A stretch of 64,000 bases of DNA from Candidatus Micrarchaeota archaeon (GTDB taxonomy: Archaea; Micrarchaeota; Micrarchaeia; Norongarragalinales; SBBD01), in NCBI GenBank assembly GCA_041305345.1, contig JBFYLP010000002.1, forward strand, positions 151,480 to 215,479. The letters run 5' to 3'. A model generated the notes under the pieces. That model searched no databases. It was given only the letters and a program-made list of their open reading frames with translations, and was not told the DNA's origin. Below, piece after piece: positions 24,298 through 44,114 of this stretch. Both the position numbers and the translations under genes were made by a program. Positions within the stretch are counted from its first letter, which is position 1; every line of letters begins with the position of its first letter.

Positions 24298-24783
24298 TCA
24301 TTTGCCCGTAATCCCAAATTCAGCCAAGTACTTGTTCAGCACCTGCAGGAACCTTTCCTCATCCATTGGGCAGCCCGGAACCTGGTCATCAACAGGAATG
24401 ACCTGCGGGATGGAAAGAACCTTCTCAAGCAGGTGGAATTTGTCGACGAGGAATTGCACCTCCTTCCTGGTCTCGTCATTGAAGAAGTTGCGCTGGCCTG
24501 CTGGAAGCCCCGAGCAGGCACAGCTGCCAATCGTGACCACTTTTTTGGAGTTCGCGCGTATTTCAAGCACCTTCTGCTTGTCCTTTTCCGTTGAAACCGC
24601 ACCCTCTATGAATGCAACGTCGATATCCGAAAGCTCGTTCTTGTTCTTAAGGATGCGCGCGTACCGAAAATCGATCAGCTGCGACCATTCCTTGTAATGA
24701 TCGTTCATCATCTCGACGAGAATTATGGATGAATCCTCGCAGCAGCTAAAGGAGAAAAGCCCGACTTTCAATTTATTCGCCAT
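24298..24783 (-). CDS. [NiFe]-hydrogenase small subunit (short, group 3/4 type; NuoB-like fold)
   Basis: 161 aa with proximal-cluster Cys pattern FSFSCCEDS...GSCACSGLPAG...VPGCP. Confidence 0.75.
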   Translation of the reverse strand: MANKLKVGLFSFSCCEDSSIILVEMMNDHYKEWSQLIDFRYARILKNKNELSDIDVAFIEGAVSTEKDKQKVLEIRANSKKVVTIGSCACSGLPAGQRNFFNDETRKEVQFLVDKFHLLEKVLSIPQVIPVDDQVPGCPMDEERFLQVLNKYLAEFGITGK

Positions 24784-31698: not shown

Positions 31699-31831
31699 CG
31701 CCGGGAGGGAGATTCGAACTCCCGAATCCTTGCGGAAACCAGCTTACTTATTGATTAGGAAATTATTATTCCCTGGGTTGAATTCCCCATCCTACTCAAG
31801 GCTGGCGCATTAACCACTCTGCCACCCCGGC
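31699..31831 (-). tRNA. tRNA-Ser (anticodon UGA inferred) with ~50-nt intron at canonical 37/38; no encoded CCA
   Basis: Minus-strand read GCCGGGG-UG-GCA(D-stem)/UGC, anticodon stem CCAGC...GCUGG interrupted after CUUGAG, class-II variable arm UCCGCAAGGA, T-arm GGGAG-UUCGAAU-CUCCC, acceptor 3' UCCCGGC + discriminator G. Folded by hand. Confidence 0.65.
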
Positions 31832-31927: not shown

Positions 31928-32072
31928 TGGGCCCATAGCTCAACCAGGATAGAGCGACTGGTTCCGATCTTTGCTTTGATCGGGAGTCGATGCTTCGATC
32001 TTGGAAGAGGCCCGGTGTCTCTTCCCAAAGGAAAACACCAGTAGGTTGCGGGTTCAAATCCCGTTGGGCCCG
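31928..32072 (+). tRNA. tRNA-Arg (anticodon CCG inferred) with ~69-nt intron at canonical 37/38
   Basis: GGGCCCA-UA-GCUC/GAGC D-arm, anticodon stem ACUGG...CCAGU separated by 76 nt (UUCCGA | intron | A), T-arm GCGGG-UUCAAAU-CCCGU, acceptor UGGGCCC + discriminator G. Confidence 0.65.
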
Positions 32073-41124: not shown

Positions 41125-41679
41125 TTGGGGTGGATCCAAATGCGGCTTTTCCTCGCAATTGAGCTTCCGGAAGGGATTAGGGCGTGTCTGGGGAAGGTTC
41201 TAAAGGATCTGCGGAAGATGGGGCTGGAGGCATCCACCACGAAGGAAGAACAGCTGCACGTCACCTTGCTTTTTCTTGGCGATGTTGGTTATGAGGAGAA
41301 AAAAGGCATATTAGAAAATTGCCGTAGGATCGAATTCCCAAAGTTCGAAATTGCCATCCGCTCCCTTGGTTTCTTCCCTGATGAAAGAAGGATGCGGGTA
41401 TTATGGGCGGGCGCAAAAACCGCGAAAGGCGAATTGGAGGCGCTGCATTTTGAGGTGTGCAGGGCCCTTGGCAGGAAACCCGAGCAGGATTTCACGGGCC
41501 ACGTCACGCTGGCAAGAATAAAGGGGAAAAGGAATATTGGAGAATTAGTGAAAATGAAGGCGGGAAGACAAAATGAGGCTTTTGGGCAATTTATGCCGCA
41601 GCATTTCGTGCTGATGGAAAGCATCCTTACCCCCCACGGAGCGGAATATTCGGTTGTGGAAAGGTTTGGATTGAAATAG
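41125..41679 (+). CDS. thpR: RNA 2',3'-cyclic phosphodiesterase / 2'-5' RNA ligase (2H phosphoesterase, LigT/ThpR)
   Basis: Two HxT/S motifs: HVTLLFLG and HVTLARIK. Confidence 0.8.
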   Translation: MGWIQMRLFLAIELPEGIRACLGKVLKDLRKMGLEASTTKEEQLHVTLLFLGDVGYEEKKGILENCRRIEFPKFEIAIRSLGFFPDERRMRVLWAGAKTAKGELEALHFEVCRALGRKPEQDFTGHVTLARIKGKRNIGELVKMKAGRQNEAFGQFMPQHFVLMESILTPHGAEYSVVERFGLK

Positions 41680-41741: not shown

Positions 41742-42428
41742 ATGAATATAGCGATGCGGCTTTTCCGGCAGCTCTATTCCAAATTCGGCCCCCAGGGCTG
41801 GTGGCCAATTTATGATGGAAGGAGCAGAAGGATCGAATACCACAGGGGTAAAATGGCCCAATTGAATGAGGCCCAAATGCTTGAGATCGCAATCGGCGCC
41901 ATCCTTGCGCAGAACACGAATTGGGGGAATGCGGAAAATGCCGTTTTGGAACTGATAAAAAGGAAAAAAATGGATGTTGGGAAAATTTCAGGTATGAGTG
42001 AATCGGATTTGGGAAGAATCATCAAGTCAAGCGGGTATTTCAGGCAGAAGGCTTACAGGCTGAAAATGTTCTGTAAATATATTGTGGGGAAATATGGCGG
42101 CATTATTGGTAAAATGTATGACAACAAGGGAACTAGCGAATTGAGGTCCGAACTGCTCTTACTGCACGGCATCGGGCCGGAAACTGCCGACTCGATAATT
42201 CTGTATTCGGCGCAGAAACCCTCATTTGTGGTGGATGCGTACACTTTCAGGTTGAATGATAAGCTAAGGTTGGTGAAGCTGAAAGAGAAAAATCACCACA
42301 AGCGGTATGACGAGCTGAAAAAGTTTTTCGAGGACAGCCTGCCTCCCGATGTGCTTCTTTTTCAGGAATATCACGCGCTGATTGTGGAATGGGGAAAGCG
42401 GCGGCAGAAAGCAAGGGTTAAAAATTAG
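41742..42428 (+). CDS. HhH-GPD superfamily base-excision DNA glycosylase (endonuclease III-related)
   Basis: AILAQNTNWGNAENA...LLLLHGIGPETADSIILYS...VVDAYTFRL is the helix-hairpin-helix Gly/Pro-Asp signature. Confidence 0.7.
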   Translation: MNIAMRLFRQLYSKFGPQGWWPIYDGRSRRIEYHRGKMAQLNEAQMLEIAIGAILAQNTNWGNAENAVLELIKRKKMDVGKISGMSESDLGRIIKSSGYFRQKAYRLKMFCKYIVGKYGGIIGKMYDNKGTSELRSELLLLHGIGPETADSIILYSAQKPSFVVDAYTFRLNDKLRLVKLKEKNHHKRYDELKKFFEDSLPPDVLLFQEYHALIVEWGKRRQKARVKN

Positions 42429-42575
42429 GGGAAATAAAAGGGATAAGCCGGTTTTTCCCTAATTTCCCAATGGCCTTTCTTTTTTTAGGGGGCTTTTTTC
42501 ATTGGGGGAACCGGAAGGAGCATTGCTCTTTACGGCCGTGAAGAACTGCCGGTTCTTCCCGGATATAAAAGGTTT

Positions 42576-42794
42576 GCAGGGGTGGCGGAATCCGGTAACG
42601 CGCTAGACTCGAGATCTAGTTGGCCGCAAGGTCAGTATGGGTTCAAACCGCCTTGCTTTCTTTTAGAAAAAGAAAGCGATGGCGCCGCAAAGAAAACTAG
42701 GTTTGATTCGCGAATCAAAATGGTTCTTTGGCGCGGAGCCAACGCACCTTTCTTCTGAAGAAAGGGGCAAGGCGTGAAAATCCCATCCCCTGCG
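42576..42794 (+). tRNA. tRNA-Ser(CGA)-like gene interrupted in the T-loop by ~130 nt (candidate T-loop intron or split tRNA); exon 1 ~42576-42647, exon 2 ~42779-42794
   Basis: Exon 1: acceptor GCAGGGG, D-arm GCG/CGC with 11-nt loop containing GG, anticodon arm CUAGA-CUCGAGA-UCUAG (anticodon CGA), class-II variable arm GGCCGCAAGGUC, T-stem 5' AUGGG + UUCAAA. Exon 2: ...AAAAU-CCCAU (T-stem 3', 5/5 complementary) + CCCCUGC (acceptor 3', 7/7 complementary) + discriminator G at 42782-42794. Confidence 0.45.
42730..42794 (+). repeat. repeat copy R1 (~65 nt) carrying hairpin CCTTTCTTC-TGA-GAAGAAAGG and the tRNA 3'-exon-like end CCCATCCCCTGCG
   Basis: Direct repeat with R2. Conserved GGCG(C)GGAGCC...GGGGCAAGGC...CCATCCCCTGCG. 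Followed by an oligo-T run. Confidence 0.5.
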
Positions 42795-42814
42795 TTTTTT
42801 TATTTTGTTTTTTT

Positions 42815-42875
42815 GGCGGCGGAGCCTACGCCACCTTTTTGTTAAAAAGGGGGCAAGGCAAGACCATCCCCTGCG
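42815..42875 (+). repeat. repeat copy R2 (~61 nt), degenerate duplicate of R1 with compensatory hairpin CCTTTTT-GTT-AAAAAGG
   Basis: Same ends as R1. The hairpin stem is preserved by covarying changes. T-stem-like ACCAT gives 4/5 complementarity. Confidence 0.5.
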
Positions 42876-43047
42876 TTTCGTTCATTGAACATAATAAGGG
42901 ATATTTTGACATAGTTTAGCCGAATTGGGCTGATTTTTGCTTATTTTTTGTTTTCGGGCCGTATTTTCGTTCATTTTGCCGGAGTTTTTCGAATAAGAGA
43001 ATATTTATATATACCAAATAGCACTTAGCTATAACGTGGGGGGGAAC

Positions 43048-43341
43048 ATGGATGCTGAAATAGGGCTAGTTTACCAATTCGTAATGGTAGCAGCAGCCAT
43101 TTGGTTATTCGTCCATCTCACGTTTGGATTTGGAACGATTAGGGAAGCAATATTTCTTGGATTCCTGGGAATCATGATGCTCTTCCTGATGGAAGGTGCA
43201 AGCAGAATCGTTTTTTCAGTGGTTTTCATCGCAGGCGGGCTGCTAGCAATGCGGGCCTATAAGGTCGATATGAGGGCGGGAGCGATGTTCGTCCTTTGCG
43301 TTGCTGCAATCAGCCAATTCATGTTTCCCTTTGCCGAATGA
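43048..43341 (+). CDS. small 3-4-TM membrane protein, paralog A of a tandem triplicated family
   Basis: VAAAIWLFVHLTFGF...IAGGLLAMRAYKVD...VAAISQFMFPF resembles the two downstream ORFs. TATA-like ATTTATATATA lies ~40 nt upstream. Confidence 0.45.
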   Translation: MDAEIGLVYQFVMVAAAIWLFVHLTFGFGTIREAIFLGFLGIMMLFLMEGASRIVFSVVFIAGGLLAMRAYKVDMRAGAMFVLCVAAISQFMFPFAE

Positions 43342-43460
43342 TATGAATAAAATGCAAGTGACATCCATGGACAAAATAATGGTCCTGGCCCGCGGACCGA
43401 TTTTTGAATTGGGCGAGCCGTATTCCGGGGCGGCATGCTTCTTTGTTTGATGTGGTCGAT

Positions 43461-43781
43461 ATGCAAGTTACGTACCTTGGCGACATGGTTTACAGCTCGG
43501 ATTTCCTCTTCGCCCTCCTCATATTGACCATTGCAATCTGGCTCGTATTGAAGTTCCTATTCAATTTCGATTCGATGAACCACGCGCTGGTGTTTGCGAT
43601 CCTCGCGATGGTGATGCTGCCCTTCATTTTCACAGCTACGCAGATTTGGACTTCATTTTTCGTGGTTCTCATACTCGGAGGACTTGCGATATCGCAGGCA
43701 TACAAATGGCCAATAGGAACAAGCATCCTTATGTGCTTCATCGCATTGATCGCGGCTTCGATTCTGCTTCCCGCGCTTTAG
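43461..43781 (+). CDS. small membrane protein, paralog B
   Basis: LLILTIAIWLVLKFLFNFDSMNHALVFAILAMVMLPFIFTA...LGGLAISQAYKW...IALIAASILLPAL is clearly homologous to paralog C. Start taken at MQVTYLGD. Confidence 0.45.
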   Translation: MQVTYLGDMVYSSDFLFALLILTIAIWLVLKFLFNFDSMNHALVFAILAMVMLPFIFTATQIWTSFFVVLILGGLAISQAYKWPIGTSILMCFIALIAASILLPAL

Positions 43782-43790
43782 GTGGAATGA

Positions 43791-44114
43791 ATGGACGCGT
43801 ATTACCTCTCGGAGATTTTCTTCAACCAGGGATTCCTCCTAGGCTACATTTTCCTCACGATGCTCATATGGATTTTCCTTAGGACCGGGTTCGACTATGA
43901 CAATTTCGGCCAGGCGGCAATCATCGCATTGGTGGGGATAATTTTCATGCCTTCGATTGTAGCGGCAATGAGCCAAAGCGGCTCCGCATTCCTTTTAATC
44001 CTGCTCCTTTTAGGCTTGGCAATATCGAGCTCGTATGGCTGGAACCTGTCGGCAACGATGCTGATATTGGTGCTCGCTGTTTATTCAGCTGCGATGATTT
44101 TGCCTCGGCTTTAA
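43791..44114 (+). CDS. small membrane protein, paralog C
   Basis: IFLTMLIWIFLRTGFDYDNFGQAAIIALVGIIFMPSIVAA...LGLAISSSYGWN...LAVYSAAMILPRL. Confidence 0.45.
   Translation: MDAYYLSEIFFNQGFLLGYIFLTMLIWIFLRTGFDYDNFGQAAIIALVGIIFMPSIVAAMSQSGSAFLLILLLLGLAISSSYGWNLSATMLILVLAVYSAAMILPRL

Follow-up and report, generated by a model that had tools for sequence, protein, structure and literature searches.

A tRNA-Ser(CGA) gene from an archaeon of the phylum Micrarchaeota (DPANN) occupies positions 42576-42794 of the 64-kb stretch of DNA analysed here (the window) and is interrupted by a 133-nt intron (42648-42780) at tRNA position 59/60. A T-rich spacer separates this gene from a second element, R2, which shares motifs and its terminal sequence with the 3' part of the gene, R1 (42730-42794). 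LigT-like and HhH-GPD genes, small ORFs and the L3 operon are the neighbours of the locus, which contains the following features.

42576..42647, + strand: 5' exon of tRNA-Ser(CGA), tRNA positions 1-59 (acceptor 5' strand, D arm, anticodon arm with CGA, long variable arm, T-stem 5' strand, T-loop TTCAAA)
42642..42645, + strand: 5' strand (TTCA) of the central helix of the bulge-helix-bulge (BHB), 4 bp with TGAA at 42775-42778, from the sequence and the MFE structure
42646-42648: 5' bulge of the BHB, AAC, 3 nt, predicted cut after 42647
42648..42780, + strand: intron, 133 nt, in the T-loop at tRNA position 59/60, near-palindromic about 42710/42711
42649..42700, + strand: intron 5' arm, which repeats the R unit in inverted orientation, with the inner-helix strand CGCCTTGC, a side hairpin (42655-42677), the GC block GCGATGGCGCCGC and an A-rich run
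42702..42719, + strand: apex hairpin of the intron, the 18-bp perfect palindrome TTTGATTCGCGAATCAAA
42730..42780, + strand: body of R1, the 3' arm of the intron, with GGCGCGGAGCC, a hairpin (42747-42765), GGGGCAAGGCG and TGAAAA
42775..42781, + strand: 3' side of the BHB, TGAA (42775-42778) and the 3-nt bulge AAT (42779-42781), predicted cut after 42780
42781..42794, + strand: 3' exon of tRNA-Ser(CGA), 14 nt: T60, CCCAT (T-stem 3' strand), CCCCTGC (acceptor 3' strand) and the discriminator G
42795..42814, + strand: T-rich spacer TTTTTTTATTTTGTTTTTTT between the tRNA and R2, 20 nt, of the oligo-T terminator type
42815..42875, + strand: R2, with GGCGGCGGAGCC, the hairpin CCTTTTT-GTT-AAAAAGG (42834-42850), GGGGGCAAGGC, the linker AAGA and then ACCATCCCCTGCG

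A tRNA-Ser(CGA) gene with a palindromic T-loop intron

With default settings, ARAGORN reports no tRNA in the whole 64-kb window, and the Rfam score of the gene is under the threshold, the tRNA model giving 25.9 bits over 42576-42657 for the 5' exon. Joining 42647 to 42781 in silico yields an 86-nt tRNA-Ser with the T-loop TTCAAAT, and this spliced product (42576-42647 plus 42781-42794) is recognised by ARAGORN as tRNA-Ser(cga), a canonical tRNA being left after removal of the intron. The same T-loop is found in the intronless orthologues (loci L024 and L025 of related species), which read GGGTTCAAATCCCAT across the junction, exactly as the spliced window gene does, and 56 nt of the 5' exon are identical to the orthologous genes.

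A strict hBHBh' motif is predicted in the pre-tRNA, where sequence and MFE fold show all the structural features of a BHB intron. The outer helix is the T stem (5 bp, ATGGG/CCCAT), the inner helix consists of 8 bp between CGCCTTGC (42649-42656) and GCAAGGCG (42767-42774), and the predicted cuts follow the second base of each bulge. The MFE fold is a cloverleaf plus the BHB, with z = -6.4, compared to z = -5.0 for the intron by itself. The intron is one long palindrome, with two side hairpins and the apex hairpin, because its 5' arm repeats, in inverted orientation, the unit that forms the R1 arm. The covariance model of the R unit scores 30.9 bits (E about 1e-6) against the minus strand of 42622-42697, an inverted-repeat search of the 5' arm supports the inverted copy, and minus-strand matches of the model are also present in L028 and L026.

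This gene model changes the meaning of several elements that had been described in an earlier, sequence-only reading of the same DNA. The palindrome at 42702-42719 and a further hairpin, perfect at 42655-42677, had been placed in a gene-free region; both are confirmed, but they belong to the intron of the tRNA-Ser(CGA) gene. R1, previously taken for one unit of a tandem repeat, is the 3' arm of the BHB intron together with the genuine 3' exon, and is neither a free-standing repeat nor a small RNA. The earlier observation that the repeats end in sequence of a tRNA 3' exon was correct.

In the orthologous genes of L026 and L028, an intron with BHB-compatible ends occupies the same 59/60 site, and covariation is seen in the inner helix (window, GCCTTG/CAAGGC; L026, GACTTG/CAAGTC; L028, GCCTTG/CAGGGC). 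The L002 orthologue has a relaxed BHB motif only, and L024 and L025 contain a complete tRNA-Ser(CGA) that has no T-loop intron and is still accompanied by an R2-type unit. The set of introns in this gene differs in nearly every species. Neither the downstream small ORF nor LigT led to further usable loci when searched for homologues, no exact record was found for the HhH-GPD protein, and a metagenome scan with the hairpin core returned a Hainich contig that is the same as L002, along with nine chance matches inside unrelated sequence.

Sequence and structure shared by R1 and R2

The motifs common to R1 and R2, GGCG(C)GGAGCC and GGGGCAAGGC, are present as originally described, as is the common end, which belongs to an exact 15-nt direct repeat, CCATCCCCTGCGTTT, at 42783-42797 and 42864-42878; the T-stem partner in R2 indeed pairs at 4 of 5 positions. 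The 12-mer CCATCCCCTGCG occurs exactly twice in 64 kb, at R1 and R2 alone. When one mismatch is allowed, there are 5 matches compared to 0.55 expected, and at least 5 matches were obtained in none of 100 shuffles. Two shorter shared motifs are, each alone, no rarer than chance, and the collinear co-occurrence of the shared motifs is unique within the window. In a scan of Rfam 15 up to E = 10, nothing credible was detected over R1 or R2, and the tRNA model alone matched, over the 5' exon only.

The hairpin of R1 is CCTTTCTT-CTG-AAGAAAGG, with 8 bp as RNA; its previous description as 9+3+9 with a TGA loop had counted overlapping bases. R1 and R2 by themselves differ by a single double-sided change (C-G to U-A) and in the length of the stem. 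Among 12 copies from 5 species, the claim that the hairpin is kept by compensatory change holds, with double-sided changes at 5 of the 9 pairs and 92.8% of the cells paired, counts that lean towards structure given that the alignment was fitted to the model and the copies are related. This level of covariation was reached in 0 of 500 shuffles, and slid controls were far lower. The RNAalifold consensus of the R unit is a rod, the same as the MFE rod in five units. The thermodynamic support for this fold is weak (z from -0.9 to -2.6), and its outer helices are invariant and accordingly contribute no covariation.

Conservation of R2-type units behind orthologous tRNA genes

R2-type units are present in only five species (the window, L002, L024, L025 and L028), in 1-3 copies per genome; the species tree is based on one protein. 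In L002, L024 and L025, they lie 14-26 nt behind tRNA-Ser(CGA), and in L028 about 600 nt behind it, beyond a 0.6-kb insert that contains a glyoxalase gene and T-arm-like tRNA fragments. By sequence comparison, R2 of the window (W_R2) is orthologous to the units that follow the orthologous tRNA in the other four species, two of which lack the T-loop intron. W_R2 is closer to the foreign units (84-91% identity) than to R1 of its own locus (76%), and GGCGGCGGAGCC is invariant across the 5 species.

The bodies of R2-type units are 77-91% identical between species, compared to 38-53% for the third codon positions of L3, the silent sites of which are saturated, and 67-73% for the whole L3 DNA. Under the silent-site rate, the identity of the R2-type bodies has a probability of 1e-6 to 1e-12. 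Because the unit is conserved beyond the saturated silent sites of L3, it is either under constraint or spreading between genomes, and the same figures rule out a neutral relic. The view of R2 as a slightly degraded, recent duplicate or relic therefore had the timing wrong, given that R2 has orthologues in other species and has diverged less than neutral DNA would. R2 probably has a role of its own. The extra copies within a genome (L002_Rb, L024_Rb and L024_Rc) are degenerate.

In every species, the last 12-19 nt of the R2-type unit are those of the resident tRNA 3' end. The resulting direct repeat is exact over 15 nt in the window and spans 14-19 nt in L002, L024, L025 and L028, and the 3' ends are concerted, with CCCCTGCG in both copies of the window and CCCCAGCG in both copies elsewhere. 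The repeat between the tRNA and the R unit extends 2-3 nt beyond the discriminator in the window, L002, L024 and L028; in L025, such an extension is found solely between the two downstream copies.

All R2-type units are preceded by T-rich spacers that end in T6-T8, and their hairpins carry T4-T7; in most of the intron-internal copies, the T runs are broken by C with a compensating G. Runs of T6 and T5 nevertheless occur inside the transcribed introns of L026 and L002, so that the T runs suggest a trend against transcription of R2-type units and no rule.

R2 as a possible replacement 3' half of this gene

The linker AAGA in R2 stands where R1 has GTGAAAAT, and the 4-bp helix and the bulge are absent. 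Because these elements are lost, R2 is unspliceable onto this 5' exon. Folds in which R2 replaced R1, or in which R1 was masked, gave no T stem plus BHB, and a role for R2 as a replacement 3' half was rejected on this ground. Within R2-type units, conservation is lowest in the BHB part, which is deleted in three of the six (W_R2, L024_Ra and L028_R), and R2 itself sits behind the oligo-T terminator. The proposal of the sequence-only reading that R2 might be an alternative 3' half is accordingly not supported.

Discussion

We favour, with a probability of about 0.6, the joint reading that the locus consists of an intron-bearing tRNA-Ser(CGA) gene and, in R2, an old, conserved, non-spliceable paralogue of its 3' part, which would be a constrained module that does not supply tRNA. 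That the module does not supply tRNA is our judgement, and a role as DNA, as a site of recombination or of other protein recognition, appears somewhat more likely than a role as expressed RNA. Under this model, the duplication that gave rise to R1 and R2 would be older than these species. Copy number would change by DNA-level duplication on the repeated 12-19 bp of the tRNA end, gene conversion would keep the repeated end identical to the resident tRNA, and one R2-type unit per genome would be under sequence constraint. The object of this constraint would be a hairpin-forming module of 60-68 nt, in which GGCGGCGGA may pair with the copied tRNA 3' end, GCC with GGC, and GCCACC with GGGGGC, with the T/A hairpin closing the predicted fold and the variable stretches forming putative loops.

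A bolder extension, which we regard as rather unlikely, sees in the R unit a module that arose from a palindromic T-loop intron, copies itself and carries the 3' exon along at duplication, the one well-kept solo arm in each genome being an undescribed functional element. If this were true, the loci would represent successive stages in the gain and loss of introns and the shedding of fragments by a tRNA gene, namely a gene that lacks the intron but has a solo arm behind it (L024, L025), one that combines the complete palindromic intron with a solo arm (the window), and decayed arms (L026, L028, L002). The well-kept solo arm could then be a hairpin RNA that mimics a tRNA end or a recombination site.

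Conservation through spread between species, in place of constraint, would be expected if R2-type units were what site-specific integration of the att type left at the 3' end of the tRNA, or if they were a small non-autonomous element whose insertion copies the 3' exon. Integration has been blamed for tRNA fragments adjoining tRNA genes in other archaea (PMC3293823, PMC3218864), a precedent that speaks for this explanation, as do the extension of the direct repeat 2-3 nt past the gene, the tandem arrays of 1-3 units with presence and absence varying among close relatives, the insert in L028, and the T runs, which suggest a unit not made for transcription. However, there is no integrase or mobile-element gene between or beside the repeats of the window, which are separated by a spacer of 20 nt, and inspection revealed no terminal inverted repeats in the R2-type unit. 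No match was found in 2.9 million viral contigs, 50,697 phage records and 72,556 plasmids: scans of the viral contigs with the R core, the tRNA body and two patterns spanning R gave nothing or only GC-rich chance matches, and BLAST of the phages and plasmids revealed no counterpart of the R unit and no matching attP. Comparison with related genomes, for which the sequence-only reading had rightly called, shows further copies of the repeat at this tRNA in related species, but none was detected away from the tRNA-Ser(CGA) locus in the 231 kb examined (the window and 17 loci). Furthermore, copies within a genome agree at the variable positions, at which the species differ, a pattern consistent with vertical descent and local duplication. 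Overall, integration strikes us as an improbable source of these units.

Several narrower proposals on the origin of the unit were rejected. A casposon-like insertion, with a 14-15-bp target duplication at the tRNA end, was dismissed given the lack of terminal inverted repeats on inspection. Against an ORB-like element of a replication origin (a dyad plus a G-string) speak the absence of an initiator gene from the neighbourhood and the position of the unit inside or behind a tRNA gene. A degenerate copy of a whole tRNA was discarded too, global alignment of R to the tRNA body being no better than for shuffles (z below 0). A block test for the D-arm-like GGCGGA and the variable-arm-like GCAAGG in R was marginal (p 0.03-0.18), which is a weak hint.

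We doubt that R2-type units encode small RNAs, or processed 3' trailers, that mimic a tRNA end. Such an RNA would be a hairpin of about 60-68 nt, the closing helix of which imitates an acceptor stem and the end of which is the tRNA-Ser discriminator, and maturation by RNase P, tRNase Z and the CCA-adding enzyme could make it a stable mimic of a tRNA end. The boundaries of conservation agree well with this possibility, beginning exactly at G1 after the T run and ending exactly at the discriminator, and so do the location of the variable stretches in loops of the predicted fold, the compensatory changes in the hairpin, the G-U compatibility of the outer-helix changes in L002_Rb, and the presence of one well-kept copy per genome with decaying extras. 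Every unit is, however, located directly behind T6-T8 and contains T4-T7, the fold z-scores are weak, and no Rfam family matches. On inspection, no TATA-like box was seen about -26 from G1, nor at a consistent distance across species on either strand.

Finally, we attach very little credence to R2 as an alternative or trans-spliced 3' half, for this 5' exon or for a tRNA-Ser 5' piece elsewhere (its partner would be a tRNA 5' part followed by GCCTTGCCCCC...GGCTCCGCCGCC): although the layout is suitable (T-loop, T-stem and acceptor 3' strand behind a GC-rich leader), R2 is 71-73% complementary to the intron 5' arm, and 3 of the 4 central pairs could form in L002_Ra, which keeps TGCA-AAT, and L025_Ra, with TTAA-AAT, the decay of the BHB part and the failure of R2 to form a BHB in silico stand against it, as do the retention of the unit in L024 and L025 beside a complete, intronless tRNA-Ser(CGA), the complete tRNA-Ser(UGA) of the window with its different acceptor stem, and the lack of any partial tRNA or complementary trailer in the window or the 17 loci (231 kb in total).

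Comparison with known systems

The closest parallel to the tRNA-Ser(CGA) gene is in ARMAN-2 (Candidatus Micrarchaeum acidiphilum), where BHB introns at position 59/60 of pre-tRNA-Cys(GCA) and pre-tRNA-Pro(GGG) are cut by the epsilon2 splicing endonuclease (PMC3239211). The two cases share the phylum, the insertion point in the T-loop and the strict hBHBh' motif, as in tRNA-Pro of ARMAN-2; cleavage of 59/60 introns has been published for ARMAN-2 only (PMC3239211), and splicing in the window is predicted. Both also have a highly disrupted set of tRNA genes of the kind that standard tRNA finders miss. Failure of such tools to detect genes like tRNA-Ser(CGA) implies that tRNA counts, and the completeness estimates that depend on them, are too low for DPANN genomes. 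In contrast to ARMAN-2, the intron of the window is 133 nt long and a near-perfect palindrome, the arms of which are inverted copies of one unit, and an additional copy of an arm with the 3' exon lies behind the gene. To our knowledge, such a copy is undescribed for ARMAN-2.

Split and tri-split tRNA genes are known from Nanoarchaeum equitans and Caldivirga maquilingensis, and recently split ones from Desulfurococcales (PMC3218864). The likeness consists in a 3' piece that follows a GC-rich leader complementary to the trailer of a 5' piece, and several 5' pieces could in principle share a single 3' piece. R2 differs in that it has no BHB junction and is located only 20 nt behind the gene from which it was copied, not at a distant locus; moreover, no separate 5' piece was found in the 231 kb examined, and the adjoining tRNA is complete.

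With att repeats, such as the 44-bp tRNA-Arg repeat of SSV1, the locus shares a direct repeat of a tRNA 3' end adjoining an intact gene. As in these repeats and in the model of intron gain and scattering of tRNA fragments proposed for Caldiarchaeum (PMC3293823), introns, fragments and inserted genes at the locus differ from one close relative to the next (L028). Unlike att repeats, the copies are 81-95 nt apart with nothing inserted except in L028, the sequence before the repeated end is conserved across species and homologous to an intron arm, and no virus or plasmid counterpart of the R unit was found in the collections searched. Models of how introns are gained or lost and of how fragments form in disrupted tRNA genes could be tested on the sequences of this locus.

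Families of related introns common to several tRNA genes of Thermoproteales were reportedly described by Fujishima et al. in 2010 and attributed to intron transposition. Here, too, related intron sequences occur at more than one place, which points to copying at the DNA or RNA level. In the present case, however, all copies are at one tRNA locus, and one of them is outside the gene, together with the 3' exon. This copy of an intron arm is conserved even though it lies outside the gene, and a 60-nt unit conserved beyond a ribosomal protein gene may be a new functional element of these small genomes.

A tRNA-Ser(CGA) gene with a T-loop intron

The region around R1 and R2, two tandem repeats of about 65 nt (42730-42794 and 42815-42875), had been taken for gene-free in the sequence-only reading but is best modelled as a tRNA-Ser(CGA) gene with an intron, to which we assign a probability of about 0.95. 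In order, 42576-42878 comprises GCAGGGG...ATGGGTTCAAA, 133 nt of strongly self-complementary sequence, TCCCATCCCCTGCG, a 20-nt T-rich spacer and R2. ARAGORN at default settings reported no tRNA in the whole 64-kb window, and the Rfam tRNA model covers only the first 82 nt of the gene (25.9 bits, below the threshold of 29). The fold of 42576-42794 (-91.1 kcal/mol, z = -6.4, equalled by 0 of 200 shuffles) is a cloverleaf with a long variable arm and anticodon CGA, in which the T stem is extended by a 4-bp helix, two 3-nt bulges and an 8-bp helix. This predicted geometry is that of the strict bulge-helix-bulge (BHB) motif of archaeal introns; joining 42647 to 42781 in silico yields 86 nt that ARAGORN calls tRNA-Ser(cga), and both the defining motif of an intron at position 59/60 and the predicted product tRNA were found.

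Elements of the predicted intron
42642-42645 (TTCA) with 42775-42778 (TGAA), plus strand, 4-bp helix of the BHB fold
42646-42648 (AAC) and 42779-42781 (AAT), plus strand, bulges of the fold
42649-42656 with 42767-42774, plus strand, inner helix of the fold
42655-42677, side hairpin of the intron 5' arm
42702-42719, 18-bp palindrome, intron apex

R1 is the 3' arm of this intron followed by the genuine tRNA 3' exon, which accounts for the exon-like terminus seen earlier, and the additional hairpin and 18-bp palindrome reported with it are present as the side hairpin and apex. The repeats themselves were correctly described save for one detail: the R1 hairpin, given as 9 bp with a TGA loop, has 8 bp as RNA (CCTTTCTT-CTG-AAGAAAGG). 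A covariance model built from R units (intron arm plus tRNA 3' end) matches 42622-42697 on the minus strand with 30.9 bits; the intron 5' arm thus repeats the unit in inverted orientation, and the predicted intron is a single long palindrome centred at 42710/42711.

Other features of the window
24334-24396, minus strand, weak sub-threshold match to C/D-box sRNA sR28 (20.9 bits, E = 0.35)
31699-31831, minus strand, complete tRNA-Ser(UGA) gene, intron of about 50 nt at 37/38, acceptor stem different from that of tRNA-Ser(CGA)
31929-32072, plus strand, tRNA-Arg(CCG) gene, intron of about 70 nt, back to back with tRNA-Ser(UGA)
41125-41679, plus strand, LigT-like 2',5' RNA ligase/cyclic phosphodiesterase gene (Pfam PF02834), about 900 nt upstream of tRNA-Ser(CGA)
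42422-42465, plus strand, inverted repeat AAATTAGGGGAAA/TTTTCCCTAATTT, overlapping the HhH-GPD stop codon (ORF end 42428) and extending past it
42475-42500, T-rich runs following this inverted repeat
43036-44114, plus strand, three consecutive small ORFs between the tRNA locus and the rpoP-L3 operon

ARAGORN defaults miss both additional tRNA genes; the program mislabels tRNA-Ser(UGA) as Thr(tgt), despite its long variable arm and its CT-TGA-G loop. The LigT-like gene also adjoins the orthologous tRNA in two relatives (L025, L026), and it may be no accident that an enzyme for RNA-end processing neighbours a heavily spliced tRNA gene. The small ORFs, matched in relatives by two or three ORFs of 84-107 aa, are fast-evolving (closest homologue found, 47% identical); 43036-43341, the one scanned, has no Pfam match.

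Variable interruptions in orthologous loci

Ribosomal protein L3 (44476-45444) assigns the window to Candidatus Micrarchaeota, and through L3 homologues we obtained the orthologous locus from seven further species. Among these and the window, L3 proteins are 68-79% identical and third codon positions 38-53%, that is, saturated. The tRNA-Ser(CGA) exons are nearly identical across loci; the interruptions differ in almost every species.

Introns of tRNA-Ser(CGA) by locus
Window: T-loop only
L026: T-loop only (76 nt)
L002: D-loop, and a short T-loop intron with a relaxed motif
L024, L025: D-loop only
L028: anticodon stem, 37/38 and T-loop (about 160 nt)
L022: 37/38 only
L001: contig begins within the last bases of the gene

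At the same 59/60 site, L026 and L028 carry T-loop introns compatible with a BHB, and their inner helices differ from that of the window by paired changes. Alignment to the exons of other species makes the L028 gene (803-1145) appear three-intron (anticodon stem, 37/38, 59/60). The D-loop introns (L002 2601-2642, L024 2909-2950, L025 1726-1754) share an identical position, are almost unrelated in sequence except for the ending ACGCA, and are conserved far less than the R2-type unit of the same locus. In L001, the closest relative (L3 77% identical), the contig starts with TCTGCGTTTTTT (1-20), within the tRNA-Ser 3' end or a repeat copy, and the repeat may have interrupted the assembly.

R2 as a probable old, non-spliceable paralogue

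R2 had been proposed as an alternative 3' half, which its layout resembles. The linker is AAGA in R2 versus GTGAAAAT in R1, and the 4-bp helix and bulge are therefore absent from R2. The T stem with R2 as partner has 4 of 5 pairs, as previously counted; in folding, T stem and BHB did not form when R2 replaced R1 or when R1 was held unpaired in a read-through transcript. R2 is thus predicted to be unable to serve the 5' exon 42576-42647, and a role as an alternative tRNA half is highly improbable.

Units of the R2 type, lying downstream of tRNA-Ser(CGA), occur in four of the relatives (two in L002, three in L024, one each in L025 and L028), a result of the comparison with homologous loci that the sequence-only reading had called for; L025 has an additional fragment ending in CATCCCCAGCG, and L024 and L025 carry such units without any T-loop intron. 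Alignment of the units shows a common order: a run of T6-T8; GGCGGCGGAGCC, which does not vary across five species; 2-3 bases that do vary; CGCCACC; a T/A hairpin whose loop is variable; GGGGGCAAGGC; 0-9 nt of linker; and the last 12-19 nt of the tRNA gene of the species concerned. Their bodies are 77-91% identical between species, with P = 1e-6 to 1e-12 under L3 silent-site identity, values somewhat inflated by T/A runs and by the alignment chosen; the 23-position GC block is identical but for one base. Because the window R2 is 84-91% identical to foreign units versus 76% to R1, and because identity exceeds the silent-site rate, the R1/R2 duplication predates these species, R2 is no recent copy in decay, contrary to its description as a slightly degraded duplicate or relic, and the unit is either selected or spreading between genomes. 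Additional within-genome copies (L002_Rb, L024_Rb, L024_Rc) are degenerate or interrupted, so that one well-kept unit remains per genome. Taken together, R2 is probably an ancient, constrained, non-spliceable paralogue.

The copied tRNA end follows the host gene. In the window, CCCCTGCG is found in the tRNA and in R2, and the acceptor stem begins GCAGGGG; in L002, L024, L025 and L028, CCCCAGCG is found in both and the acceptor is GCTGGGG. The repeat extends 2-3 nt past the discriminator in the window, L002, L024 and L028, and in L025 only between its two downstream copies. Because the end matches its own tRNA and the repeat exceeds the discriminator, DNA-level copying or gene conversion would be a better fit to these sequences than selection to keep the end paired with the acceptor 5' strand.

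Possible roles of R2-type units

A DNA-level module or a recombination-related role, including an integration scar or mobile element, is the likeliest of the named roles, although less likely than not. All R2-type units lie directly behind T6-T8 and have T4-T7 within the hairpin; in the certainly transcribed copies, T runs are mostly split by a C that has its matching G (TTCTTT and CCTTTCTT in R1, CTTTCTTTT in the intron 5' arm). The introns of L026 and L002 contain T6 and T5, respectively, so this is a tendency rather than a rule. No TATA-like box was found at a consistent distance on either strand of the R2-type units across species. Given the T runs and the lack of such a box, we lean, with low confidence, towards a DNA role or non-expression.

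In searches for a source or partner, no member of the R family turned up away from this locus on either strand of 231 kb, comprising the window and 17 loci, and no partial tRNA gene was found in the window. A metagenome scan returned solely the L002 contig; no real match came from four scans of viral contigs or from BLAST against collections of phages and plasmids. The R body resembles the D arm and the variable arm of the tRNA itself at best marginally.

The RNAalifold consensus of the units is a rod built from three pairings, GGCGGCGGA against UCCCCWGC from the copied tRNA end, GCC against GGC and GCCACC against GGGGGC, with the T/A hairpin at the tip; in five units the single-sequence minimum-energy fold is the same rod (z only -0.9 to -2.6), and all variable stretches fall within its loops. 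The outer helices never vary and are therefore uninformative for or against structure. The hairpin covariation noted previously stands as an observation, with double-sided changes at 5 of 9 pairs, intron arms included, and, for the whole structure, 92.8% of cells pairing, values matched by 0 of 500 shuffles and much lower in slid controls, in an alignment fitted to the model. A hairpin within a DNA palindrome would score likewise. An expressed hairpin RNA would be an unlikely role for R2; the remaining probability belongs to another role or none.

Comparison with known systems

Introns at 59/60 are documented in ARMAN-2, a member of the same phylum, together with an endonuclease that cuts them (PMC3239211), and tRNA-Ser(CGA) with its predicted intron would be an ordinary case of this Micrarchaeota type. 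We found no description in the literature of a solo intron arm with a copied 3' exon conserved across species. R2 resembles the 3' half of a split gene in layout but fails at the junction; like an integration scar, it repeats the tRNA end directly, but no element was found between or beside the repeats in the window and no attP counterpart in the viral, phage and plasmid collections. Of published schemes, the Caldiarchaeum model comes closest: tRNA fragments and introns are deposited by mobile DNA at a single variable locus (PMC3293823). In L028 (1249-1730), an inserted glyoxalase-family gene separates the tRNA from its R unit and is followed by T-arm-like fragments (GGGTTCGAAT...GGTTCGAATACCATACACAGCA), an arrangement that agrees with this model and suggests that the locus is a recombination hot spot.
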